Shown: positions 1 through 25,740, numbered from the stretch's first letter. The stretch is DNA of 64,000 nt from an uncultured Verrucomicrobiaceae bacterium (GCA_964638025.1 CAZWXW010000003.1:15126-79125), one strand, 5' to 3'. Numbers and translations are program-made. The notes: generated by a model from the sequence alone, not told the origin.

Positions 1-92
1 GTTGAGCAGCGGCAAGTGCCGTCGCCGGTGACCCGTCTGCAGGAGGCGGCGCCGGGGCTTTTGCATTTTTTGAAGAAGGCGAGAGGTGGTTG

Positions 93-1169
93 ATGAAATC
101 GGTCGGCAAGGCGTTGTTGGCGACGCTGCTGTTGTTGGCGCTGGGTGCCGCCGCTGCGGAACAGCCGCTGCCCAAGAAACTGCGTATCGCATCGGTGGCC
201 TATTTCCAGGGCGACAGCGTCGTCTATCAGGGCAACCCGGCGGTGGTCGCGGAGCAGGGCTGGCTGGCCGGGCAATTGAAACAGCGCGGTGTCGAGCTGG
301 AGTGGGTGCCGGCGCCGCACAGCAATGTCGGTCCGGTCATCAACGAGGCATTTGCCAATGGCGGCATCGATTTCGCTGCCTATGGCGATCTGCCGGCGAT
401 CATCGTCAGGTCTGGCGGTGTCGATATCCGTCTGATCGTGCCGGGCGGTCGCGGACAGGAGACATTCCTGGTGGTGCCGGCCGTGTCGACCGCACGCAGC
501 ATCGAAGATCTGAAAGGCAAACGCATTGCGATCCATCGCGGCCGCCCGTGGGAGCTGCCGTTCAGTCGCCTGCTCAAAAGCCGGGGACTCGGCTACGGCG
601 ATTTCAAGATCGTCAATGTCAACCCGCCGGCCGGCGCCGCTGCCATTGCCGCCGGCGGTGTCGATGCGCTCTACACGCTGAATGACGCCTACCTGCTGGA
701 GGACAAGGGTGTCGGCCGCATCATCTGGTCGACCGAGGAGGCACCGCCGGAGTGGCGCATGCGCGCCGAGCTGTGGGGGTCGGCTGCATTCCTCGACAGT
801 TACCCGGAGCTGGCGCAGCTGGTGGCGACCGCGTTCATCCGCGCCGCGCACTGGACCTCGCAGGAGGAGAATCGCGCCGCGTTTCTGCAGATCAATACAC
901 GCAACGGCTCGCCGCTCAGTGTCGTCGAGCGCGAATACGCGCTGGGTCGGATTTCGTGGCGCCAGCGTTGGTCGCCGCTGTTTGCCGGCTATGTCGAAGA
1001 CCACTATCGCGGCGCCATCGACTACGCCGTGCAGACGAAGCTGATCCGCCGCGCGCCGACCTACGAGACGCTGGTCGATACCCGCTTCGTGCCGGTCGCG
1101 CTGCGCGAGCTCGGTCTTGAAAATTACTGGAGTGATTCGTCGAAAGTCGCGGGGGTCGTTGCGCCGTGA
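93..1169 (+). CDS. SsuA/TauA-like periplasmic substrate-binding protein (NitT/TauT-family ABC importer)
   Basis: ORF 90-1169; ATG at 93 after GAGAGG; signal peptide MKSVGKALLATLLLLALGAAAA; NMT1/SsuA-type motifs (GIDFAAYGDLP, LKGKRIAIHRG); first gene of an SBP-permease-permease-ATPase operon. Confidence 0.8.
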   Translation: MKSVGKALLATLLLLALGAAAAEQPLPKKLRIASVAYFQGDSVVYQGNPAVVAEQGWLAGQLKQRGVELEWVPAPHSNVGPVINEAFANGGIDFAAYGDLPAIIVRSGGVDIRLIVPGGRGQETFLVVPAVSTARSIEDLKGKRIAIHRGRPWELPFSRLLKSRGLGYGDFKIVNVNPPAGAAAIAAGGVDALYTLNDAYLLEDKGVGRIIWSTEEAPPEWRMRAELWGSAAFLDSYPELAQLVATAFIRAAHWTSQEENRAAFLQINTRNGSPLSVVEREYALGRISWRQRWSPLFAGYVEDHYRGAIDYAVQTKLIRRAPTYETLVDTRFVPVALRELGLENYWSDSSKVAGVVAP

Positions 1170-1206
1170 CTGTCGTGGTGACATTTGCGACGTGCGGATT
1201 TCTGCG

Positions 1207-2004
1207 ATGAGCGACGCGGCGAAGAAGTTGCGAGCGGGCGGTGAGATATTCGGACGCTGGCTGGCGCCCGCTGTTGCCGGCCTGCCGCTGCTGCTGTTGC
1301 TCGCCGTCTGGTTTCTGGTGGCCGCTGCCGGCTGGTATCCGCGACAGCTGTTCGTGCCGCCGCAAGAGGTGATCGCCGCCGCGCGCGAGTTGCTCGACAG
1401 CGGTGAGCTGCAGCTGCACCTGAGTCAGAGTCTGGGCCGACTCGGCATCGGCATGCTGATCGGCTGTGTCGGCGGCGTGCTGTTTGGCGTGCTGATGGGG
1501 CTGTCGCGCAGCGTCGAGCTCTACACGGCGCCGCTGTTCCACGTCGTCCGGCAGGTGCCATCGATCGCGCTGATTCCGATTTTCATTCTGCTGTTCGGCA
1601 TCGGTGAAACCTTCAAGATTCTGATCGTGGTCAAGGCAGCGTTCTTTCCGGTGGCGCTGGCCACCTATACCGCCGTTCAGCAGATACCGAAGCAGCTGAT
1701 GGAGGTGGCGCGGCTCTACCGACTCTCCTCAGCGGCGCTGTTCCGTTACGTGGTGTTGCCGGCCACCGTCCCGCCGATCGTCACCGGCGTGCGACTGGCG
1801 CTGGGCCGGTCGTGGGGCACGCTGGTGGCGGCGGAGCTGCTGGCCGCGGAATCGGGCGTCGGCCAGATGATGGAGCTGGGCCGGCAGATGTTCCGGCTCG
1901 ACATCGTCATGCTCGGCGTGGTGATCGCCGGCCTGATCGGCTTCGCGCTCGATCGCGGCATCAAGCTGTTCGAACGCCGGCTGCTGCGCTGGAGAACGGC
2001 ATGA
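1207..2004 (+). CDS. ABC importer permease (SsuC-like, BPD-type)
   Basis: In-frame ATG 1207 in ORF 1117-2004; multi-TM hydrophobic protein; EAA-like loop EVARLYRLSSAALFRYVVLP. Confidence 0.8.
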   Translation: MSDAAKKLRAGGEIFGRWLAPAVAGLPLLLLLAVWFLVAAAGWYPRQLFVPPQEVIAAARELLDSGELQLHLSQSLGRLGIGMLIGCVGGVLFGVLMGLSRSVELYTAPLFHVVRQVPSIALIPIFILLFGIGETFKILIVVKAAFFPVALATYTAVQQIPKQLMEVARLYRLSSAALFRYVVLPATVPPIVTGVRLALGRSWGTLVAAELLAAESGVGQMMELGRQMFRLDIVMLGVVIAGLIGFALDRGIKLFERRLLRWRTA

Positions 2005-2777
2005 GCGCAATTCATTCGCACGCGTTGACCAACACGGCGCGCGGGCTGGCGCTGCCGCTGCTGCTGGTTGCCGGCTGGCACTATCTATCGACGCTGGGAC
2101 CGGGTTACGCCTACGCGTTCGTACCGTTGGGCACCGTGTTCGACAGCGCGGCGGAACTGCTGGCCAGTGGCGAACTGGCAACGCATGCCCTGGCCAGCCT
2201 CCGCACCGCACTGACCGGGCTGGTCACCGGCGCCAGCTGCGGCCTGCTGTTCGGTATCGCCATGGCGCTGTTCCGTCCGGTCGACTGGCTGTTCGGGCCG
2301 ATCTATCACGCGCTGCGGCAGGTGCCGACGCTGGGGCTGATTCCGCTGTTCGCGCTGTGGTTTGGCAACAGCGAATTTTCCAAGCTGCTGGTGGTCTCGC
2401 TCGCCACCTTCGAAGTGATGACGCTGAACAGTTATGAAGGGCTGCGCAATGTCGACCGGCGCTTCAGCGAGCTCGGCCAACTGCTGACACTGAATCGGCG
2501 CCAGCTGTTCCTGCGCGTGATGCTGCCGATGGCGATGCCGTCGATCATCACCGGGCTGATGCTGGCGGTGGCCTTCGCGTGGCTCGCCACGGTCGGTGTC
2601 GAGCTGCTGTTCACCGTCGGCCCGGGACTCAGCACGTTGATGGAGCGGGCGCAGCTGGCGGAGCGGATGGATGTGGTGCTGATCTGCATCACGATCATCG
2701 GGCTGCTCGGCCTTGTCATGAATCAACTCTGCGTATTGCTGAGCCGGCGCGTACTGCGCTGGCGCGAAAGCCGCTGA
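2001..2777 (+). CDS. ABC importer permease, second subunit (paralog of 1207-2004)
   Basis: ATG 2001 overlaps upstream stop (ATGA); in ORF 1812-2777; EAA-like loop LGQLLTLNRRQLFLRVMLP; multi-TM. Confidence 0.8.
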   Translation: MSAIHSHALTNTARGLALPLLLVAGWHYLSTLGPGYAYAFVPLGTVFDSAAELLASGELATHALASLRTALTGLVTGASCGLLFGIAMALFRPVDWLFGPIYHALRQVPTLGLIPLFALWFGNSEFSKLLVVSLATFEVMTLNSYEGLRNVDRRFSELGQLLTLNRRQLFLRVMLPMAMPSIITGLMLAVAFAWLATVGVELLFTVGPGLSTLMERAQLAERMDVVLICITIIGLLGLVMNQLCVLLSRRVLRWRESR

Positions 2778-2791
2778 GCGCTCGTTCGAGG

Positions 2792-3664
2792 ATGTTTCGC
2801 ATGAATGCCCGTCTCAATACCCATTTCAATGCTCGTCTTGGTGCCAGTGTGCCGCCGGTGCCGTGGTCGCAGACCGCGCCTTCGGGTGGTGTTTCCATCC
2901 GGGGTGTCAGCAAGTCCTACCGCATCGATCGGCGCCAGCTGCCGGTGCTGCACGACATCGCGCTCGACATTCGCCCCGGCGAATTTGTCAGCATCGTCGG
3001 CCCGAGCGGCTGCGGCAAATCGACGCTGCTGCGGCTGATCGCCGGGCTCGATGCCGATTTCAGCGGCGACATCGCGGTCGATGGCGAGCGTGTCGCCGGC
3101 ACCAGCCTCGATCGCGGCATGGTGTTTCAGGACCACCGGCTGCTGCCGTGGCTGACCGTCGAGGAGAATGTCGCGCTGGCGCTGTTGAATCGAGAGCTGT
3201 CGCCACGGCGCAAACGCGAGCTGGTGGCCGACCATATCGCGCTGGTCAATCTGGCTGGCTTCGAGAAGGCCTATCCGCACCAGCTCTCCGGCGGCATGGC
3301 GCAGCGCGCGGCGATGGCGCGCGCGCTGGTCAACGAACCGAAGGTGCTGCTGCTCGACGAACCGCTGGGCGCGCTCGACGCCCTGACCCGCATTCATCTG
3401 CAGCAGGAGCTGCAGCGTATCTGGATGACGCAGCGCGGCACCGTGATCATGGTGACGCACGATGTCGAGGAGGCGGTCTATCTCAGCGATCGCGTGGTGG
3501 TGATGAATGCCGGCCCCGGCACCGTCGCGCGCATCGTCGGGATTCCATTGCCGCATCCGCGCGAACGCTCGTCGTCGCTGCTGCGCAGCGTACGAGATGA
3601 AATTCTCGACGAGCTGATTCGGACGCCGGTCAGTGCCGGCGATACGCAGCGCGGAGACAAATAA
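2792..3664 (+). CDS. ABC importer ATPase (SsuB/TauB-like)
   Basis: ORF 2579-3664, likely start ATG 2792 or 2801; Walker [10 protein letters not shown], signature LSGGMAQR, Walker [12 protein letters not shown]. Confidence 0.85.
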
Positions 3665-3665
3665 G

Positions 3666-4865
3666 TTGAGTGGCAGCAGTAGCGCATTCATCGCCCGCTT
3701 CATGTTGCTGTCGGTGATCGGTGGTCTGACCATCGGCATGGGCAAGGTGGTTACCACCTTCTTTGCACTGCATGTCGGTGCTACGTCGTCGCAGGTCGGC
3801 TTCATTGCCGGCATCGAGGCGACCGGCCGCATGCTGGTGACGATTCCGGCCGGCTTCATCATTGCCCGTCGTGGCGCGCGTGTCGTCTATTCGCTGGCCA
3901 GCCTGGTACCGATGGTGCTGAACGTGGTCACGCCGGGATTGACGCTGTGGTATGTGATCGCGCTGACGCGCGGCGCCATCGGCCTGTCGATTCCGTTCCG
4001 CGTGGTGGCGATGAACAGCGCCTTCCTGCAGCAGCTCAGCACGCTCGGCGCCAGCCGGGCGGGCTGGTATCGCGGTTCGCAATCGCTCGGCATGACGCTG
4101 CTCGGGCCGCTGCTCGGCGGCTTGCTGGTGCAGCACGGCAGCTACTGGGGATGCTATCTGCTGATCGCCGGGCTGTTCGCCGTCATGGCGCTGTTCGGCA
4201 ACAGTTTCATGCCGAACGTGGAACCGGCGCCGGTTGAATCGCACGGCGCGGCGGAGCAGGGCATGTGGTCGGAATCGCTGGCGCTGCTGCGCAACAAGGC
4301 GATTCGCGACAGCTGCCTGATCGAGGCGATCGGCAGCTCGACGGTGTCGCTGTTTTCGACCTTCATCCTGCTGCTGGCGATCAACGACCTGAAAGTGTCG
4401 CAGTCGCTGGCGGTGATGCTGCTGGTGGTGCAGGGCATCACCACCGTGCTGGTCTCCTTCCTGCTCGGCTTCATGGTCAGCGGTGCCGCGCGCAATATCG
4501 TGCAGCCGCTCAGCTTCGCGATGATGGTGGCCGGCCTGCTGGTGATCGCCACCGCCAAGCTCTATCTGCTGGTGGCGCTCGGCGCGGTGCTGCTGAGCGC
4601 GGGCGGCGCGCTGATCGGACTGGCGCGAACGCTGCAGCTGAGTCGCATGACGATCAGCAAGGGCAAGATTTCCGGCGTCTTCAATCTGGCGACGATGGGC
4701 GGCACCGCGTTCGGTGCGCTGGCAGGCGGCGTGCTGGCGGAAGTGATCGGATTGCGCGGCCTGTTCCTGAGCTGGATTCCGCTGGTGGTGGCGGCCGCAC
4801 TGTTCTGCCGACTGCGCGCCGATGATCTGAATGCGCCGGCAACGGTTCAGCAGGGCGCCGGCTGA
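3666..4865 (+). CDS. MFS transporter (paralog of 37721-38950)
   Basis: ORF 3633-4865; TTG 3666 just after upstream stop (ATG 3702 alternative); about 12 hydrophobic segments; strong similarity to 37721-38950 (TIPAGFIIARRGARVVYSLASL vs TMPAGFIIAHYGAKRVYALASL). Confidence 0.7.
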   Translation: MSGSSSAFIARFMLLSVIGGLTIGMGKVVTTFFALHVGATSSQVGFIAGIEATGRMLVTIPAGFIIARRGARVVYSLASLVPMVLNVVTPGLTLWYVIALTRGAIGLSIPFRVVAMNSAFLQQLSTLGASRAGWYRGSQSLGMTLLGPLLGGLLVQHGSYWGCYLLIAGLFAVMALFGNSFMPNVEPAPVESHGAAEQGMWSESLALLRNKAIRDSCLIEAIGSSTVSLFSTFILLLAINDLKVSQSLAVMLLVVQGITTVLVSFLLGFMVSGAARNIVQPLSFAMMVAGLLVIATAKLYLLVALGAVLLSAGGALIGLARTLQLSRMTISKGKISGVFNLATMGGTAFGALAGGVLAEVIGLRGLFLSWIPLVVAAALFCRLRADDLNAPATVQQGAG

Positions 4866-4902: not shown

Positions 4903-6030
4903 TCACAGCATGCCGTAGAGCTTGAGGCGATGTCGCAGGATGTTGCGACTGATGCCGAGCAGCTTCGCGGTCTGCAGCTGGTTCTGCTGGCAGTAGTCGA
5001 AGGCGCAGCGAATCATGCGCCGTTCCAGTTCGGCATACAGCTCGTCGCCGCCGCGCTCGAAGATGTTGATCATCGCCCGCTCGTAGGGCTGATCGGAGTC
5101 GGCGATATCCTCGACCAGTCGATGCGTGCCGGTCGGCTCGCTGCCGTGCTGCTGCAGCCGGTATTCCGGCAGATGAAGATCCGAGGCCTGGATCAGGTGG
5201 TCGCTGTGGATCAGCAGCGAGTGGTGAATGACATTCTCCAGCTCGCGGATATTTCCCGGCCAGGGATATGACAACAGCGCCTGCCGGGCGGCGGAGGTCA
5301 GCTGCGGCGGCCGCAGTGACAGCTGCTCCGAATAGCGAATGACGAAGTGCTCCGCCAGCGGCACGATATCGCCGCGCCGATCGCGCAGCGGCGGCACCTG
5401 CACCTGCGCCACGTTGAGGCGGTAGTACAGATCTTCGCGGAAGCGACCGCCGCGAACCGCTTCGGCGAGATTGACGTTGGTCGCCGCGACCAGCCGGATA
5501 TCGATCGGTATCGACACGCGCCCACCGACGCGACTGATCTCGCGCTCCTGCAATACCCGCAGCAGCTTGACCTGGGTGGCCGGTGGCAGATCGCCGATTT
5601 CATCGAGAAACAGCGTGCCGCCGCTGGCGATTTCGAACCAGCCCTTTTTCTGCAGCACCGCGCCGGTGAAGGCGCCTTTTTCATGGCCGAACAGTTCGCT
5701 CTCGACCAGCTGTTCCGGCAGCGCGGCGCAATTGACGGCGATGAAGGGACCGTTGCTGCGACCGCTGAGGTGATGAAGCCGGCGCGCCACCAGCTCCTTG
5801 CCGGTGCCGGTTTCGCCGATGATCAGCACGCTGGCATCGCTCGGCGCCAGCCGCATCAGGCGATCGTGCATCGCGCGCGAGCGCGCATCCTCGAACACCA
5901 GCGCGGTGGCGCGAATGCTGCGCGTATAGGCACCGGGGTTCTTGAACGAGATCAGGCGATCGGACTGGGTGTCCGAGCGCTGGTCGCCAAGATGCCGGGT
6001 GTCAAACGATGGGTCGAGAATGTCGTTCAT
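4903..6030 (-). CDS. Sigma-54-dependent transcriptional activator lacking a receiver/sensor domain (SfnR-like bEBP), R1
   Basis: ORF 4903-6168; ATG 6030 preceded by GGAG; AAA+ core [14 protein letters not shown] motif ([10 protein letters not shown]), LFLDEIGD; C-terminal Fis-type [23 protein letters not shown]; only about 75 aa precede the AAA+ domain. Confidence 0.85.
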
Positions 6031-6164
6031 TTGCTCCGCTCTCCATGACCGAACATGCTCTTTCTGAAAAAGCAGAATTTGTTCAGACAGCCTGATTTTC
6101 TTCCGTGAAAGTACCATCGGCCAGAAAACGGCAAAAACAATAAAAAAATGAATAGATATACGGA

Positions 6165-6182
6165 GCATTGCATTTGCAATGC
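6165..6182. promoter_or_regulatory. 18-bp palindrome in the AT-rich region upstream of R1
   Basis: GCATTGCA-TT-TGCAATGC; 8-bp arms with a 2-nt centre, so more like an operator than an RNA hairpin. Confidence 0.35.
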
Positions 6183-6217
6183 GTCGATCCGGTGCGGCAA
6201 CAAAAAGGGGGAATGGC

Positions 6218-7096
6218 TTACCGGATGGCCGACGGTTCGATGTTGTGTTGCAACTCCGGTTTCCACTCCGGATGCGGGGCGCCGAACAGCGTGCCCTGTG
6301 CCTTCGAAATGCCGGCCCTCTCCATCACCGGGCGAAGGTTCTCGCTGTTGACGCCGGTGGCAATGACCTCGATGCCGTTGTCCTTCGCCGCCGCTACCGC
6401 GTAGCTGACCAGTTCGCTGTGACGGGTGGAGGTCCGCGCCGCTTCCAGCGCGGTGCGATCCAGCTTGATCAGGTTTGGCTGCAGGCCGAGCACCCGGCCG
6501 ATGTGCAGGTGATTGCGGCCGAAGGCATCGATGGCGACGCGATAGCCGCGCGCCTGCCAGGCGCTGATGGCGTTGCGCAGATGCAGGCGGTCGCGCACCG
6601 GGAACTCGTTCACTTCCAGCACGAAGCTGGCGGGGGCCAGACCACAGCCGCGCAGAATCTCTTCGAATACCTGGCCGTGGTCGGAGCTGACGGTCAGCAA
6701 ATGTTCCAGGTGCACATTCAGGTGCAGCGTGCCGCTGCCCTGCTGAACCAGATAATTCAGTGCGTGCAGCGTGCGACTGAGGCGGTCGATATGCGTGATG
6801 TCGGCGTTGTCCGCCACCGATGACTGGATCGGGCTGCTGGCCAGCAGCGGCTTGCGAAACAGCGCGCCGTTCTGCCCCTCCAGCTGCAGAATGGCTTCGT
6901 GCCCAACGAGCTCCCCGGTGTCGATGTCGACAATCGGCTCATACAGGCTGTCGAGGCAGAAGCTGGCGTAGCGGGCGTTGATGCGATCGCCGGCGATGAA
7001 CAGCGGAAGCTCTTCGCCGGTCGCATAACGATCGCGCTGAAAGTAGTTGTGGTTCAAATAGATCAGCAGGTGCTTGACGACTTCGGTGCGGCTCAT
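6218..7096 (-). CDS. Stand-alone EAL-domain protein with degenerate catalytic motifs
   Basis: ORF 6218-7144; ATG 7096 preceded by GGAG; EAL-family blocks [21 protein letters not shown] (for DDFG), IKLDR, ATGVN (for EGVE), AQGTLFG. Confidence 0.75.
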
Positions 7097-7116
7097 CGTC
7101 GCTCCAGGGATCATTG

Positions 7117-7176
7117 GTGAAAGGTGCATGGGTGGAAAGTGCACGAGTGAAGGTTGCGTGGGTGATGCTGGCGCGA
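7117..7176. repeat. 15-bp tandem repeat x4 in the EAL gene 5' region
   Basis: GTGAAAGGTGCATGG / GTGGAAAGTGCACGA / GTGAAGGTTGCGTGG / GTGATGCTGGCGCGA; lies 21-80 nt upstream of the minus-strand start at 7096. Confidence 0.75.
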
Positions 7177-7305
7177 ATTCTGTTGGGCAAATCGACGTCT
7201 GTAAATTCTTTCGCTTCTATGGAGTTCTCATATCGATATCAGGCGGTTTTTCCAAACGATAGAGGGTGTTTGGCGCTGCTGGCGTGTCACCAGTGTTGTG
7301 GCAGG

Positions 7306-7327
7306 AACTGTTGCTGTAGCAACAGTT
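7306..7327. promoter_or_regulatory. Perfect 22-bp palindrome containing CTGTTG-N6-CAACAG; candidate activator (UAS) site
   Basis: AACTGTTGC-TGTA-GCAACAGTT; 130-150 nt upstream of the 7457 promoter candidate, in the EAL/R1 - P1 divergent region. Confidence 0.45.
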
Positions 7328-7456
7328 GGTGGATCGTGGTCGCCTTGGCCTTTGTGGTGTTGTATAACCACGGGCGCTGTTGTTTGTCGCCTGTATCGCC
7401 GCGAATGCGCGCTCCGGTTCATCTGCACCGATGCCGCGAGCGGTCGATTGGACGAT

Positions 7457-7472
7457 TGGTATGGCGACTGCA
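7457..7472 (+). promoter_or_regulatory. Candidate sigma-54 (-24/-12) promoter upstream of P1
   Basis: TGGTATGGCGACTGCA; GG to GC spacing as in TGGCAC-N5-TTGC; 43 nt upstream of ATG 7515. Confidence 0.5.
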
Positions 7473-7514
7473 AGAGCGTGGCTGAGTGGTTAAGGACGAT
7501 ATCCGGAGTTCACG

Positions 7515-8660
7515 ATGGCAAGAGATTTTGCAGCACCTCCCGGTTCTTCAGGGCCCGGCTCTTCAGGGCCCGGCTCTTCAGGGACTTCACGCTTTCCGAC
7601 CACGCTGTGGTATTCGCGCAGCTCGGTGCCGACGGCGCTCGGCATTGCCGCGCAGCTGGGATGGCTGCAGCAGGAGTTTTCGCCTGAAAGCATCGCCGTG
7701 CGTTCGCTGCAGCAGAGCGGCGATCCGCTGCTGCGCGAGAGTCATGTCGATCACCATCTGCCCGACAGCTTTCGCCAGGGCGGCAGCGTGCCGGCGCTGT
7801 GGGCCTATTCCGCCGGCGCCGATACCCGCCTGATCGGATTGACCTGGACCGAAGAGTTTCAGGCCGTGCTCAGCCTGCGCGGCTCCGGCATCGACAGCGC
7901 GCAACAGTTGCGCGGCCGTCGCCTCGGCCTGCCGTCGCGCCCCAACGAGCGCATCGACATGGCGCGGGCGACGGCGCTGCGCGGTTACCTGACGCTGCTC
8001 GATGTCGAGGGGATCGGTTATGACGAGGTGCAGCTGGTGGATGTCGAGACCGCGCCGTTGAGCGCGAATCATCTGCCGATCGACAATCGCAACTCGGCGG
8101 CATGGGCCAGCACGCCGGCGGGACATCTGACCCGGCGCGACTACCGGGCGGATGTGCTGGCGCTGCTGCGCGGCGACGTGGATGCCATCTATGTGAAAGG
8201 CGTGCGCGGCATCGAGGTGGCGCGGCTGCTCGGCGAGCAGGTGCAGGTGGCGGCCGATATCGGCGGCCATCCCGATATTCACGTGCGCAGCAACAACTCG
8301 ACGCCGCGCCCGCTGACGATCAGCGCCTCGACGCTGGAGAACTATCCCGATGTCGCCGTGCGTTTTCTGCGGCGGGTGGTGGAGGCGGGTGCCTGGGCGG
8401 AAACGCATCCGCGCGAGACGGTTGCGCTGCTCGGGCGCGAGACCGGTTCGGTCGAGGAGTGGATCAGCTACGCCTACGGCGTGGAAGTGCACCGCTACCT
8501 GCGCACCGATCTGGCTGATTACGCGCTGTCGGCGCTCGATGATTTCAAGAATTTCCTGTTCAAGTGGGGGTTTCTGCCCCACAACTTCAATCTCAATGGC
8601 TGGGTCGATTTCGAGCCGCTGGAACAGGTGCACAGGCTGCCGCGCAAGCGTATCGCGTAA
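7515..8660 (+). CDS. Cytoplasmic SsuA-fold protein, DszB (sulfinate desulfinase)-like paralog P1; Ser in place of the putative nucleophile Cys
   Basis: No signal peptide; motifs LWYSRSSVPTA, SHVDHHLPDSFRQGG, LIGLTWTEEFQA, LRGRRLGLP, FLFKWGFLP shared with 24607, 35366 and 49784 copies; N-terminal (PGSSG)x3 from a 15-bp tandem repeat. Confidence 0.7.
   Translation: MARDFAAPPGSSGPGSSGPGSSGTSRFPTTLWYSRSSVPTALGIAAQLGWLQQEFSPESIAVRSLQQSGDPLLRESHVDHHLPDSFRQGGSVPALWAYSAGADTRLIGLTWTEEFQAVLSLRGSGIDSAQQLRGRRLGLPSRPNERIDMARATALRGYLTLLDVEGIGYDEVQLVDVETAPLSANHLPIDNRNSAAWASTPAGHLTRRDYRADVLALLRGDVDAIYVKGVRGIEVARLLGEQVQVAADIGGHPDIHVRSNNSTPRPLTISASTLENYPDVAVRFLRRVVEAGAWAETHPRETVALLGRETGSVEEWISYAYGVEVHRYLRTDLADYALSALDDFKNFLFKWGFLPHNFNLNGWVDFEPLEQVHRLPRKRIA
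7541..7585 (+). repeat. 15-bp tandem repeat x3 inside the 5' end of P1 (encodes PGSSG x3)
   Basis: CGGTTCTTCAGGGCC / CGGCTCTTCAGGGCC / CGGCTCTTCAGGGAC. Confidence 0.85.
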
Positions 8661-17772: not shown

Positions 17773-18006
17773 AGCTGATCAGCTGTTTTGAAAAAAGTTG
17801 TTGTAGAGACAGGCCGGCATCAGTCGAAAGACACCATTTTTCGTCGCGCCTGCGTTACTTCGTCTGCAGCAACAACACAAGCTGCTGCAGCAACAGCGCA
17901 GCACCACTCGCTGCCTGTTTGTGCGCGCAGACAAGCAATATTTGCTCATCGATATCTGTAATGCAGCTAATCATATGAGTTTTACCTGACAGCGGAACAC
18001 TGTCGT

Positions 18007-18022
18007 TGGCTTGCAACCTGCA
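18007..18022 (+). promoter_or_regulatory. Candidate sigma-54 promoter upstream of TBDR1
   Basis: TGGCTTGCAACCTGCA; correct spacing; 67 nt upstream of ATG 18089. Confidence 0.5.
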
Positions 18023-20678: not shown

Positions 20679-20694
20679 TGGCATATTTTCTGCC
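20679..20694 (+). promoter_or_regulatory. Candidate sigma-54 promoter upstream of tonB-exbB-exbD
   Basis: TGGCATATTTTCTGCC; correct spacing; 120 nt upstream of ATG 20814; AT-rich tract just upstream. Confidence 0.5.
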
Positions 20695-22912: not shown

Positions 22913-24112
22913 TTACAGGAAAGAAGGCTTGGCGAACTCTTCTGCTGCTTCCAGTTGCACGGTGGGAACGCTGTCGTCGAGTGCGCCGCCGTCATCGACC
23001 GATTCGCGCAGCAGGCCATGGCGCTTCAGTAGAGTACGCAATACGTTGCGTGAAATGCCGAGCAGCGCGGCGGTGTGAACCTGGTTGTGGTGCTTGTAGC
23101 GAAATGCTTCGTTGACGATCAGGTTTTCGAACTGATCGAAAATGGGAGATCTGCCGCCGCCATCTTCCGTGATCTGAAACAGCTGGCGCAGCTGCCGGGC
23201 AAGTACGTCCCACGGCGTATCGTCATGATCCTGCCCGACAGGCGGCCGACTTGCTGCGCTGTTCTGCCAGGAGCTTCTGCTCAGCGGACTTCTGCCACCG
23301 GCTATCTTGATGTGTTGAGGCTCTATTGCCTCTTTCTCGGATACCAGCAGCGCGAAATGAATTACATTTTCCAGCTCCCGGATATTGCCCGGCCAGCTGT
23401 AATGTCTCATCAATTCTCTCGTGTCGAATGAAATTTCTGGCTTTCTGCAACCCATTCGTTCGGTGTAGACGCGCAGGAAATATTCCGCCAGTGGCAGGAT
23501 ATCGCCCGGTCTTTCGCGAAGCGGTGGCAGTTCGACGTGCGCAATGTTTATGCGGTAAAGCAGGTCGCGGCGGAAGTGGCCTGCGGCGACCGCGTAATCG
23601 AGATCGACATTGGTGGCGGCAATCAGGCGGATGTCCACCGGGATGCTCTTGCGCGAACCGATGCGCACGACTTCGTGTTCCTGCAGCACGCGCAACAGCT
23701 TGACTTGCAGTGAGAGCGGCAGGTCGCCGATCTCGTCGAGAAACAGCGTGCCACCGTTGGCGGCCTCGAACCAGCCCTCGCGCCGGCCCGTTGCACCAGT
23801 GAAAGAACCGGCCTCGTGACCGAACAGTTCGCTTTCGGCCAGCTGGTCGCTGATGGCACCGCAGTTGACCGCGAGAAAGGGGCCTTTGCGTCCACTCAGG
23901 CGATGTATGTGGCGGGCGACCACCTCCTTGCCGGTGCCGGTTTCGCCGCCGATCAGCACCGGCGCCTCGCTCGGCGCGATGCGCTCGATGTAGTCGAGCA
24001 GCAGGGCCGACACCGGGTCGGAAAAGACCAGCGCCTTCGCCCGGATCGACAGCGGCTGCGCATTGCTTCCCACCAGTGACAGCACGACTGGGTCGGATGT
24101 TTCTTCGCTCAC
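22913..24112 (-). CDS. Sigma-54-dependent transcriptional activator lacking a receiver/sensor domain (SfnR-like bEBP), R2
   Basis: 399 aa; [34 protein letters not shown]; C-terminal [23 protein letters not shown]; short N-terminus. Confidence 0.85.
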
Positions 24113-24287: not shown

Positions 24288-24305
24288 CTGTTGGATTTTC
24301 AACAG
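24288..24305. promoter_or_regulatory. CTGTTG-N6-CAACAG inverted repeat; candidate activator (UAS) site
   Basis: CTGTTGGATTTTCAACAG in the R2 - P2 divergent region; a degenerate copy CTGTTCGATATCCAGCAC lies 21 bp upstream (24267-24284). Confidence 0.4.
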
Positions 24306-24606: not shown

Positions 24607-25740
24607 ATGCCAACATCCAGAAAGCCCGGAAGACTGCACGAAGTTTTTTACGCCCGAGCCCCGTTCCCGACGCCGGTGGCAATCGCCGTCCAGCTGGGTT
24701 GGATCCAGGATGCGATGCGACATCTTTCAGGTATCGAAGTCAGGTCGTTGAACGAAACGACGAACCCGGCGGATCTGCCGCACCACTTCGAGATCGATCA
24801 CCTCAACGCTTTTCGCCAGGGTGGTAGCATTCCGGTCATCTGGGCGCGCGCCAATCAGCAGGACACCCGTGTCATCGGGCTGACCTGGACCGACGAATAC
24901 CAGGCGCTGGTCGCGCTGCCGCAGTCGCGGATTCATAACGTCAAGGATCTGCGCGGCCGGCGCATCGGCGTGCCGAAGCACAGCATAGTCATCGACCACG
25001 CCCGCGCGTCGGCGCTGCGCGGCTTCAGCGTGCTGCTGGAGAGTGAGGGGATGAGTCTCGCGGATGTGGAGATCGTCGATCTGGAAGATCACGAGATTCC
25101 AACCATGGTGCTCGACGGGCAGGTGATCTCGATGGGAACCGGTCGTCGCGGCCGCCACAGCTACAGCAGCGAGGTTCACGCGATGACCAGCGGCCTGGTC
25201 GACGCGGTCTACGTCAAGGACGTGCGCGGCGCCCAGGCCACCCATCTGATGGGCGCGCAGGTATTCGCCGACATCAACGGCCATCCCGATCCCTATATCC
25301 GCATCAACAACGGCACGCCGCGTCCGCTGACGGTGAACGCGTGGTTGCTGGACAACTATCCGCATCTCGTCGACTGTCTCGTCGAGCAGGTTCACAACGC
25401 GGGTGAGTGGGCCCGCTCCCGTCCCGAGGAGACGCTGACCGTGCTGAGCCGCGAGATCGGTTGGTCGGAGCACTGGGTCAACTACACCTATGGCGACAAC
25501 GTTCACCGCAACCTCGGGCTCGACCTCAACCCGGCCAATGTCGAGCGCTTCACGCGGATGAAGGATTTCCTGCTGCAGCACAATTTCATTCCGCATGATT
25601 TCGATATCGATGCGTGGATCGATCCGGCCCCGCTGGAGCGCTTTCTGCGAAGTCGCAGGGGTGGATCTGTCGACGGCAGGGCATCGGCGCGCGAGAACCG
25701 CTGGTCGTGCCCGCCGGTTCCGCTGCGCTCGTTTCACTGA
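24607..25740 (+). CDS. DszB-like SsuA-fold paralog P2; Ala in place of the putative nucleophile Cys; aberrant C-terminal tail
   Basis: No signal peptide; VFYARAPFPTP, PHHFEIDHLNAFRQGG, VIGLTWTDEYQA, LRGRRIGVP; tail after APLERF is about 18 aa longer than in paralogs and overlaps a DszA-type remnant in another frame. Confidence 0.7.
   Translation: MPTSRKPGRLHEVFYARAPFPTPVAIAVQLGWIQDAMRHLSGIEVRSLNETTNPADLPHHFEIDHLNAFRQGGSIPVIWARANQQDTRVIGLTWTDEYQALVALPQSRIHNVKDLRGRRIGVPKHSIVIDHARASALRGFSVLLESEGMSLADVEIVDLEDHEIPTMVLDGQVISMGTGRRGRHSYSSEVHAMTSGLVDAVYVKDVRGAQATHLMGAQVFADINGHPDPYIRINNGTPRPLTVNAWLLDNYPHLVDCLVEQVHNAGEWARSRPEETLTVLSREIGWSEHWVNYTYGDNVHRNLGLDLNPANVERFTRMKDFLLQHNFIPHDFDIDAWIDPAPLERFLRSRRGGSVDGRASARENRWSCPPVPLRSFH

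Follow-up and report, generated by a model that had tools for sequence, protein, structure and literature searches.

How is a transcriptional activator controlled when it carries no sensor of its own? The question is raised by R1, a sigma-54 activator encoded in a stretch of 64,000 nucleotides from an uncultured Verrucomicrobiaceae bacterium (the whole stretch is called hereafter the window), and by its two neighbours. One is a degenerate EAL-fold protein encoded on the same strand immediately upstream of R1, the other is P1, a DszB-like protein encoded on the opposite strand. The window is a sulfur-scavenging island of 65% G+C. An initial annotation had proposed that P1, the EAL protein or both could be the ligand-sensing modulator of R1. 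Our analysis points, with slightly more confidence than doubt, to a sulfur-starvation regulatory module, in which R1 would activate P1, control would act on the synthesis of R1, and the EAL protein would be a sulfur-linked component. The features of the locus are as follows.

4903-6030, minus strand: R1, SfnR-family sigma-54 activator of 375 residues (Pfam, homology)
6031-6217, minus strand: spacer of 187 bp between the EAL gene and R1 (alignment with the related loci L001 and L003)
6218-7096, minus strand: degenerate stand-alone EAL-fold protein of 292 residues (Pfam EAL, E = 2e-28)
7177-7205, minus strand: sigma-70-like promoter candidate of the EAL gene, TTTACA-17-CAGAAT (consensus scan; both hexamers kept in L001 and L003)
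7227-7242, no strand assigned: palindrome CTCATATCGATATCAG (ATATCGATAT), in a conserved block upstream of the EAL promoter candidate
7306-7327: perfect palindrome AACTGTTGC-TGTA-GCAACAGTT (core CTGTTGC-N4-GCAACAG), predicted SfnR-type upstream activating sequence
7457-7472, plus strand: sigma-54 promoter candidate TGGTAT-GGCGA-CTGCA, 43 bp upstream of the P1 ATG
7515-8660, plus strand: P1, DszB-like protein (NMT1/SsuA fold) of 381 residues, with Ser36 at the position of DszB Cys27

P1 is divergent from the EAL-R1 pair, across an intergenic region of 418 bp. No Rfam match was found between window positions 4500 and 9000.

The longest open reading frame of R1 covers 4903-6168, and the supported start is the ATG at 6030, given the GGAG located 4-5 nt upstream, the conservation of this start in L001 and L003, and the AT-rich, non-coding DNA further upstream. 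Pfam recognised Sigma54_activat (PF00158, E = 3e-70) at residues 46-210, AAA_lid at 216-294, and a C-terminal Fis-type helix-turn-helix (HTH_8, PF02954, E = 4.5e-6) at 333-371. The Walker A (GETGTGKE, residues 72-79), Walker B (LFLDEIG) and GAFTGA sigma-54 contact motifs were intact, and invariant in an alignment of 70 sequences. N-terminal to residue 46, no Pfam domain was detected. In the AlphaFold2 model, the predicted local distance difference test score (pLDDT) was below 50 for residues 1-17, with weak order at 18-40, and such poorly ordered residues argue against a folded sensor domain. R1 is therefore devoid of a recognisable sensor, as the initial annotation had stated. Its estimate of some 75 residues ahead of the AAA+ core is right if one counts to Walker A (71 residues), whereas the domain itself begins after about 45. 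All 120 homologs listed were 294-392 residues long and none had a sensor Pfam domain, so that the absence of a sensor is a trait of the SfnR family.

SfnR proteins are sigma-54 activators of dimethylsulfone and methanesulfonate utilisation genes. R1 was 59-60% identical, over 91-94% of its length, to the 361-residue protein P0103 of P. aeruginosa, whose neighbours (locus L088) are an FMN reductase, a luciferase-like monooxygenase, an acyl-CoA-dehydrogenase-like gene and a second activator of 376 residues. We take this locus to be sfnR1-msuEDC-sfnR2, and P0103 to be SfnR1. The gene names msuEDC and sfnR come in part from PMC8234197. The resemblance to SfnR that had been noted earlier is borne out by this identity to a protein encoded beside msuEDC. 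By its sequence, R1 is a member of the SfnR family, with the family's architecture of about 360-390 residues and no N-terminal domain. The closest R1 clade (at least 65% identity) has in addition a disordered N-terminal tail of about 30 residues with a common motif, DPSFDT, which is not found in P. aeruginosa SfnR1.

The region between P1 and the EAL gene was aligned with its counterparts in three related loci, chosen with EAL proteins that share 75% (L001), 73% (L003) and 64% (L007) identity with that of the window. The promoter candidate at 7457 is the sole exact match to TGGYAY-N5-YTGCW in the 64-kb window, and is kept as TGGTAY-N5-CTGCT in all three relatives; it was among the promoter candidates of the initial annotation. 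About 150 bp upstream of it lies the palindrome 7306-7327, present with zero or one mismatch in the three relatives. The pattern AACTGTTGC-N4-GCAACAGTT has one exact match in the window, versus 0.00 expected from 100 shuffles. The same palindrome occurs once in the 15-kb P. aeruginosa locus, as AACTGTTGC-CCGG-GCAACAGT, 83 bp upstream (about 100 bp from start to start) of the TGGTAC-N5-TTGCT promoter that precedes msuE. Since the palindrome is shared with the msuE upstream region, it is predicted to be an SfnR-type upstream activating sequence, and P1 to be a direct target of R1.

Two further observations concern these elements. In P. aeruginosa, a protein of 129 residues without Pfam match is encoded between sfnR1 and the msuE promoter (L088, 8199-8588), and the palindrome begins at the stop codon of its gene. 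The other sigma-54 candidate of the initial annotation, at 18007 of the window, lies 67 bp upstream of the receptor start (~18089, where the signal peptide begins), and the palindrome located about 110 bp further upstream is half-conserved. It is plausible as a promoter, and weaker than the one at 7457.

The window encodes four cytoplasmic DszB-like paralogs and a second activator resembling R1:

7515-8660, plus strand: P1, Ser at the Cys27 position; divergent from EAL-R1
24607-25740, plus strand: P2, Ala at the Cys27 position; divergent from R2
P3: Cys at the Cys27 position; in a monooxygenase operon
P4: Cys at the Cys27 position; in a monooxygenase operon
22913-24112, minus strand: R2, second sensor-less SfnR-like activator, 399 residues, 50% identical to R1 (tblastn, translation of the open reading frame)

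P1 aligns over its full length with DszB, the 2'-hydroxybiphenyl-2-sulfinate desulfinase (PDB 2DE2), although overall similarity is low: residues 17-366 match DszB residues 8-354 (phmmer, E = 2e-10). The DszB segment YSNCPVP reads YSRSSVP in P1, which places Ser at Cys27, a change that the mutant DszB chains in PDB 2DE3 and 2DE4 also carry. The pocket residues His60, Arg70 and Gly73 are kept. P1 differs from DszB also by its position behind a predicted sigma-54 promoter. It was correctly described before as lacking the catalytic Cys and as divergently transcribed. Inspection by eye of its N-terminus revealed no signal peptide. The distribution of these residues was examined in an alignment of 155 sequences (150 family representatives, the four window paralogs and a DszB anchor), in which the anchor sequence is approximate, so that the Cys27 assignment rests on the PDB alignment instead. 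The His60, Arg70 and Gly73 columns were conserved in 122-139 of the 155 sequences. Among the 142 sequences with a residue in the Cys27 column, 120 had Cys, 13 had Ser (~9%) and nine another residue; the Ser form is therefore a recurrent minority. The nearest homologs of P1 in cultured strains are found in Variovorax and in B. cenocepacia (51% identical, Cys type), which has three copies, accompanied by SsuA, monooxygenase and MFS genes. Near its start (~7541-7583), P1 carries three successive copies of GPGSS, PPGSSGPGSSGPGSSG, encoded by a direct DNA repeat; the L001, L003 and L007 orthologs lack them. Upstream of P2, a palindrome-like CTGTTG-N6-CAACAG is present at 24288-24305, and no clear -24/-12 element was found there.

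Could P1 nevertheless be the sensor, as the initial annotation suggested? P1, and likewise P2 for R2, would then be a binding-protein fold that has lost catalysis and that modulates the activator upon sensing a sulfonate, sulfinate or sulfone. Such an arrangement has a parallel in NasS, a cytoplasmic NrtA-like sensor that acts on NasT. The two non-Cys paralogs are precisely those that face SfnR-like activators, while both Cys paralogs sit in monooxygenase operons, and Ser is kept in all P1 orthologs. The products of a regulated operon can also bind their own activator, as the abstract of PMC9650030 describes for RtcAB and RtcR. Yet P1 is preceded by a conserved sigma-54 promoter and a predicted upstream activating sequence, the arrangement that a target gene should have. 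Its divergent orientation adds little, because Burkholderia SfnR-like genes (53-56% identical to R1) are divergent from msuE-sfnG(-sfnB), which makes this the ordinary layout of an SfnR activator and its target. The P1 homologs examined in Burkholderia and Variovorax have no activator within 7-kb flanks, and the other R1-family loci examined (L005, L088, L089 and L114) have no P1-like gene. Finally, the His, Arg and Gly residues of the pocket are retained in the Ser variants, which may therefore still have enzymatic activity. We consider a sensor role of P1 very improbable: the conserved promoter and palindrome mark it as a probable target.

The second neighbour, the EAL protein, was compared with RocR. 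The equivalents of R179, D296, E352 and Q161 are replaced by Q, A, T and E, respectively, and those of E175, N233, E265, E268, D295, K316 and Q372 are kept. The complete catalytic set (E175, N233, E265, E268, D295, D296, K316 and E352, with the contacts Q161 and R179) is thus broken at four positions. The earlier description of a degenerate stand-alone EAL gene, upstream of R1 on the same strand at a distance of 187 bp, is therefore correct. The AlphaFold2 model was confident (pLDDT 90.4). Its best Foldseek matches were EAL domains (E = 4e-14), with target-normalised TM-scores of 0.7-0.8 for stand-alone EAL-domain targets and lower ones where the target was a longer, multidomain chain.

A single-sequence search of 5.8 billion proteins gave only seven EAL relatives above 36% identity, and a tblastn search of a plasmid collection gave generic EAL domains alone, at no more than 30% identity. 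A profile search assembled about 80 stand-alone members of 250-335 residues, including proteins of Nitrosomonas sp. JL21 and Aromatoleum diolicum. The fixed positions of a signature, D104-R-L-x-R-T-x-H-A-L-N114 (DRLxRTxHALN), are each at least 90% conserved among them. The signature falls within a long helix (97-117) and, judging from secondary structure, is probably exposed at the surface. The segment H140-G-x-x-F-E-x-I-L148, covering a loop and the first part of the next helix, and residues L48, S50, F52, R183 and P207 are conserved to the same extent (at least 90%) across 80 members. As RT[LV]HALN was one of the two scan patterns that retrieved L090-L113, conservation of the signature in those loci is partly by construction. 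The EAL protein is, on these sequence comparisons, a member of an apparently undescribed, non-catalytic EAL-fold family.

Alternatively, the protein might be a working cyclic di-GMP (c-di-GMP) phosphodiesterase or a c-di-GMP receptor, and the locus would couple sulfur scavenging to biofilm or motility decisions. The seven retained residues speak for it, together with the moderate conservation across the family of the equivalents of Q161 (66 of 80), R179 (48), D318 (62) and Q372 (70), and with one member (335 residues; L115, 9001-10008) that keeps every canonical catalytic residue. The latter also carries the signature, as DRLxRTLHALN, so that the signature is independent of the loss of catalysis. 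In RocR and TBD1265, mutagenesis reportedly showed D296 and E352 to be essential for catalysis, and R179 and Q161 to contact c-di-GMP; it is these four that are replaced in the EAL protein and its clade. Moreover, catalytic positions drift freely across the family: at E175 the 80 members have mostly E (24), H (22) or K (15), and at E352 mostly R (29) or T (22). A role in c-di-GMP turnover or binding seems improbable.

Genomic contexts of the family were collected from five look-ups of the homologs found by the single-sequence search, from 24 loci retrieved when metagenomes were scanned with the family alignment, and from four further look-ups. The arrangements encountered were the following.

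sbp-cysT-cysW-cysA-EAL: L090 and L091, with cysA and EAL overlapping by 4 bp in L090
Sbp-EAL-CysK: L094 and L095
Sbp-EAL: L100 and L103
Sbp-EAL-CysT-CysW: L106
Sbp-EAL-CysK-SAT-SrpI-cysteine desulfurase-rhodanese: L101
SrpI encapsulin clusters: L005, L099 and L110
CysN-CobA-EAL, then rhodanese: L104
EAL, with rhodanese about 1 kb downstream: L107, L108, L109 and L112
EAL adjoining a 1-Cys peroxiredoxin gene: L115, where a TonB receptor/ExbBD cluster is also adjacent
Settings unrelated to sulfur: L096, L111, L116 and L117

With fixed tblastn criteria, 18 of 34 family loci had a sulfate-assimilation gene (sbp, cysTW, cysK, SrpI cluster or rhodanese) no more than 4.5 kb away, versus one of 80 control loci (Fisher p = 9e-11), although the family set holds several closely related loci and some of the query proteins were taken from scored loci (L089-L091). 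The control was made of 80 unrelated activator loci, with flanks nearly four times longer than those of the family loci, a difference that works against the test. A scan of genome contigs with R1 had drawn 80 unrelated activators of about 45% identity (L008-L087), through the generic peptide FGHEKGAF, and these were used as a background set only. The EAL family is linked to sulfur assimilation. In the literature searched, no report was found that connects an EAL protein with sulfate transport or with sulfate starvation.

How does this family come to be next to an activator? The SfnR-like activator gene comes directly after the EAL gene in three loci (the window, L001 and L003), with a gap of about 190-220 bp. 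In L007 (2483-2701) and L114 (9995-10213), a stand-alone TOBE (Mop-like) gene of 72 codons lies between the two, 7-42 bp from the activator gene; both TOBE proteins are 82% identical to each other. In a neighbour-joining tree, the EAL proteins of these five loci group as a single clade. The cysPTWA-linked L090 and L091 are among the sister groups of this clade, so the sulfur association looks ancestral and the activator link derived. Along the linked loci, both proteins diverge in parallel, from 75% to 40% identity for EAL and from 90% to 67% for the activator, which fits long co-inheritance. The spacer of the window has no detectable TOBE remnant, and no TOBE gene is present at the Burkholderia and P. 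aeruginosa SfnR loci. From this comparison, TOBE appears to have been lost in the lineage of the window. Where it exists, the TOBE protein could be an anion sensor (for sulfate, thiosulfate or molybdate) of an EAL-TOBE-activator module. The SrpI cluster of L005 is flanked on one side by a family EAL gene and on the other by an R1 ortholog.

The initial proposal that the EAL protein is a partner of R1 is indirectly supported by this clade-wide EAL-(TOBE)-activator order and by the sulfur ties of the family. Several observations weigh against it, beside the two reservations about the enrichment given above. No sigma-54 activator was found in the flanks of L090-L113 and L115-L116, and L117 has just a bacterial enhancer-binding protein with a receiver domain, about 7.5 kb away. 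As most EAL-family loci are without a nearby activator, the core function of the family cannot depend on R1-type proteins. Conversely, L089, which has an R1 ortholog, has no EAL gene within 8 kb on each side, and the P. aeruginosa and Burkholderia SfnR loci are devoid of an EAL gene as well. The evolutionary rate of the EAL protein is also higher than that of R1 and P1, by a factor of about 2.5. Lastly, the 187-bp spacer contains a hairpin (GCATTGC-N4-GCAATGC, 6165-6182) just past the EAL stop codon and a conserved AT-rich block, which may split EAL and R1 into separate transcripts; a promoter for R1 or the site of a regulator may lie within the spacer.

These same facts lend themselves to another scheme, in which R1 needs no partner. 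R1 would be constitutively active and controlled by its amount, through a CysB-type cascade, and the EAL protein would be a co-regulated member of the sulfur regulon with a separate job, for example in regulating sulfate uptake, via the TOBE-type C-terminal domain of CysA, or in connecting c-di-GMP signalling with sulfur status. Regulation of SfnR by CysB is stated in reference titles, among them that of Endoh et al. 2003 in the reference list of PMC8234197. Most family EAL genes lie by sbp, cysTWA, cysK or SrpI, down to the overlap with cysA in L090; the TOBE domain occurs both at the C-terminus of CysA and as the small gene beside EAL in L007 and L114; and the conserved spacer could provide the R1 promoter. 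No CysB site could be called, in a region where the spacer is conserved and a promoter-like site is present. On the other side, the EAL-(TOBE)-activator order persists across the clade, to EAL identities as low as 40% and amid changing surroundings, which exceeds what is expected of mere regulon neighbours, and the conserved DPSFDT tail of the R1 clade speaks against a partnerless activator. This scheme is a serious possibility, though we would not call it probable. The same tentative standing is given to modulation of R1 by the EAL protein, which is proposed by analogy: regulated synthesis of R1 alone and modulation by EAL are about equally likely.

The mechanism that we propose for the module is the following. 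R1 would bind the palindrome at 7306-7327 and activate the sigma-54 promoter at 7457-7472. It would thereby drive P1, and probably the lipoprotein and RND genes downstream, P1 being a member of the regulon and not a sensor. Baseline control would be set by the amount of R1 made, as with the CysB-controlled sfnECR operon of P. putida. These two steps, activation of P1 and synthesis-level control, rest on sequence evidence. The EAL protein, non-catalytic, would most likely pass a sulfur-status signal as a protein-binding regulator; it would have become fixed upstream of the activator in this clade, ancestrally with the small anion-binding TOBE protein between the two. The broader view, that the family is a dedicated signalling component of sulfur assimilation and that in one clade EAL, with or without TOBE, supplies sensory input to the SfnR-like activator by direct binding, is more doubtful.

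The genes around the locus fit into the island described at the outset. An SsuA-like ABC transporter is encoded at 90-3664, and the island also includes an MFS transporter, four luciferase-like monooxygenases, RND efflux genes, two TonB-dependent receptors with TonB/ExbBD, and Opp-like ABC systems. Downstream of P1 (8660-17772), an MdtABC-like RND system is preceded by a TPR/transglutaminase-like gene, whose product has an N-terminus of lipoprotein type. The order of P1 then RND is kept in the relatives, the lipoprotein gene being absent in L003, and the RND efflux system may share the sigma-54 transcription unit of P1. More intergenic candidates of the -24/-12 type were seen at 20679 and 30319 on the plus strand, and at 50931-50916 and 55013-54998 on the minus strand. 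They precede tonB, a gene for a family-5 solute-binding protein, the operon of P4 (the Cys-type DszB-like protein) and a monooxygenase, and a dienelactone-hydrolase gene. By these motifs, much of the island may be RpoN-dependent. A sequence similar to the palindrome at 7227-7242, CTCATCGATATC, is found at ~17948-17962, between the half-palindrome and the sigma-54 candidate at 18007. The motif common to both, CTCAT(AT)CGATATC, may be a site for another regulator or for integration host factor.

The closest R1 orthologs outside the lineage of the window, in L005 (65% identical) and L089 (69%), adjoin SrpI-type clusters (rhodanese-CysK-SAT-HTH-SrpI encapsulin-cysteine desulfurase; L005, 1540-9488, and L089, 8001-15244). 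Because of this proximity, activators of the R1 clade may control operons for SrpI nanocompartments. In the neighbourhood table of the SrpI paper, neither Sigma54_activat nor EAL is listed.

Comparison with known systems shows what is shared and what is distinct. Like SfnR of P. putida and the SfnR1-SfnR2 pair of P. aeruginosa, R1 consists of AAA+ and helix-turn-helix domains without an N-terminal regulatory domain, it is encoded in a sulfur-scavenging island, and its predicted target palindrome is the one preceding the msuE sigma-54 promoter. It differs in that the adjoining predicted target is a DszB-like gene with lipoprotein and RND genes, not msuEDC or sfnFG, and in the EAL-like gene upstream (with TOBE in relatives), which is not described for SfnR. 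Other sensor-less activators are controlled in trans: PspA inhibits PspF, and HrpV acts on HrpS (PMC7057263). R1 resembles PspF and HrpRS in having no cis-regulatory domain, and a neighbouring gene could likewise encode its trans-acting regulator. The EAL protein, however, has a plain EAL fold without detected similarity to PspA or HrpV, and many SfnR-family loci do without it. A closer precedent for the proposed activity is that of YdiV/STM1344 and STM1697, EAL-like anti-FlhD4C2 factors (PMC3510510, PMC5622320), which are stand-alone and catalytically degenerate as the EAL protein is, and which bind a transcription activator as the EAL protein is proposed to do. Its proposed target is an AAA+ sigma-54 activator, not FlhD, and the DRLxRTxHALN signature and sulfur context set it apart. 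No entry named YdiV was among the 37 PDB sequence matches (E <= 0.001) or the 50 Foldseek matches listed.

The palindrome CTGTTGC-N4-GCAACAG, common to this organism and to msuE of P. aeruginosa, provides a concrete prediction of the site bound by SfnR-type activators. What is understood of sensor-less sigma-54 activators comes from few trans-acting regulators, such as PspA and HrpV, and for the widespread SfnR family the response to sulfur status is described in terms of CysB-driven expression. The EAL family would add a testable player to sulfur-starvation signalling, and it would extend the list of EAL-like proteins repurposed as protein-binding regulators. If true, a direct input of EAL, with or without TOBE, would constitute a new class of trans-regulator for enhancer-binding proteins.

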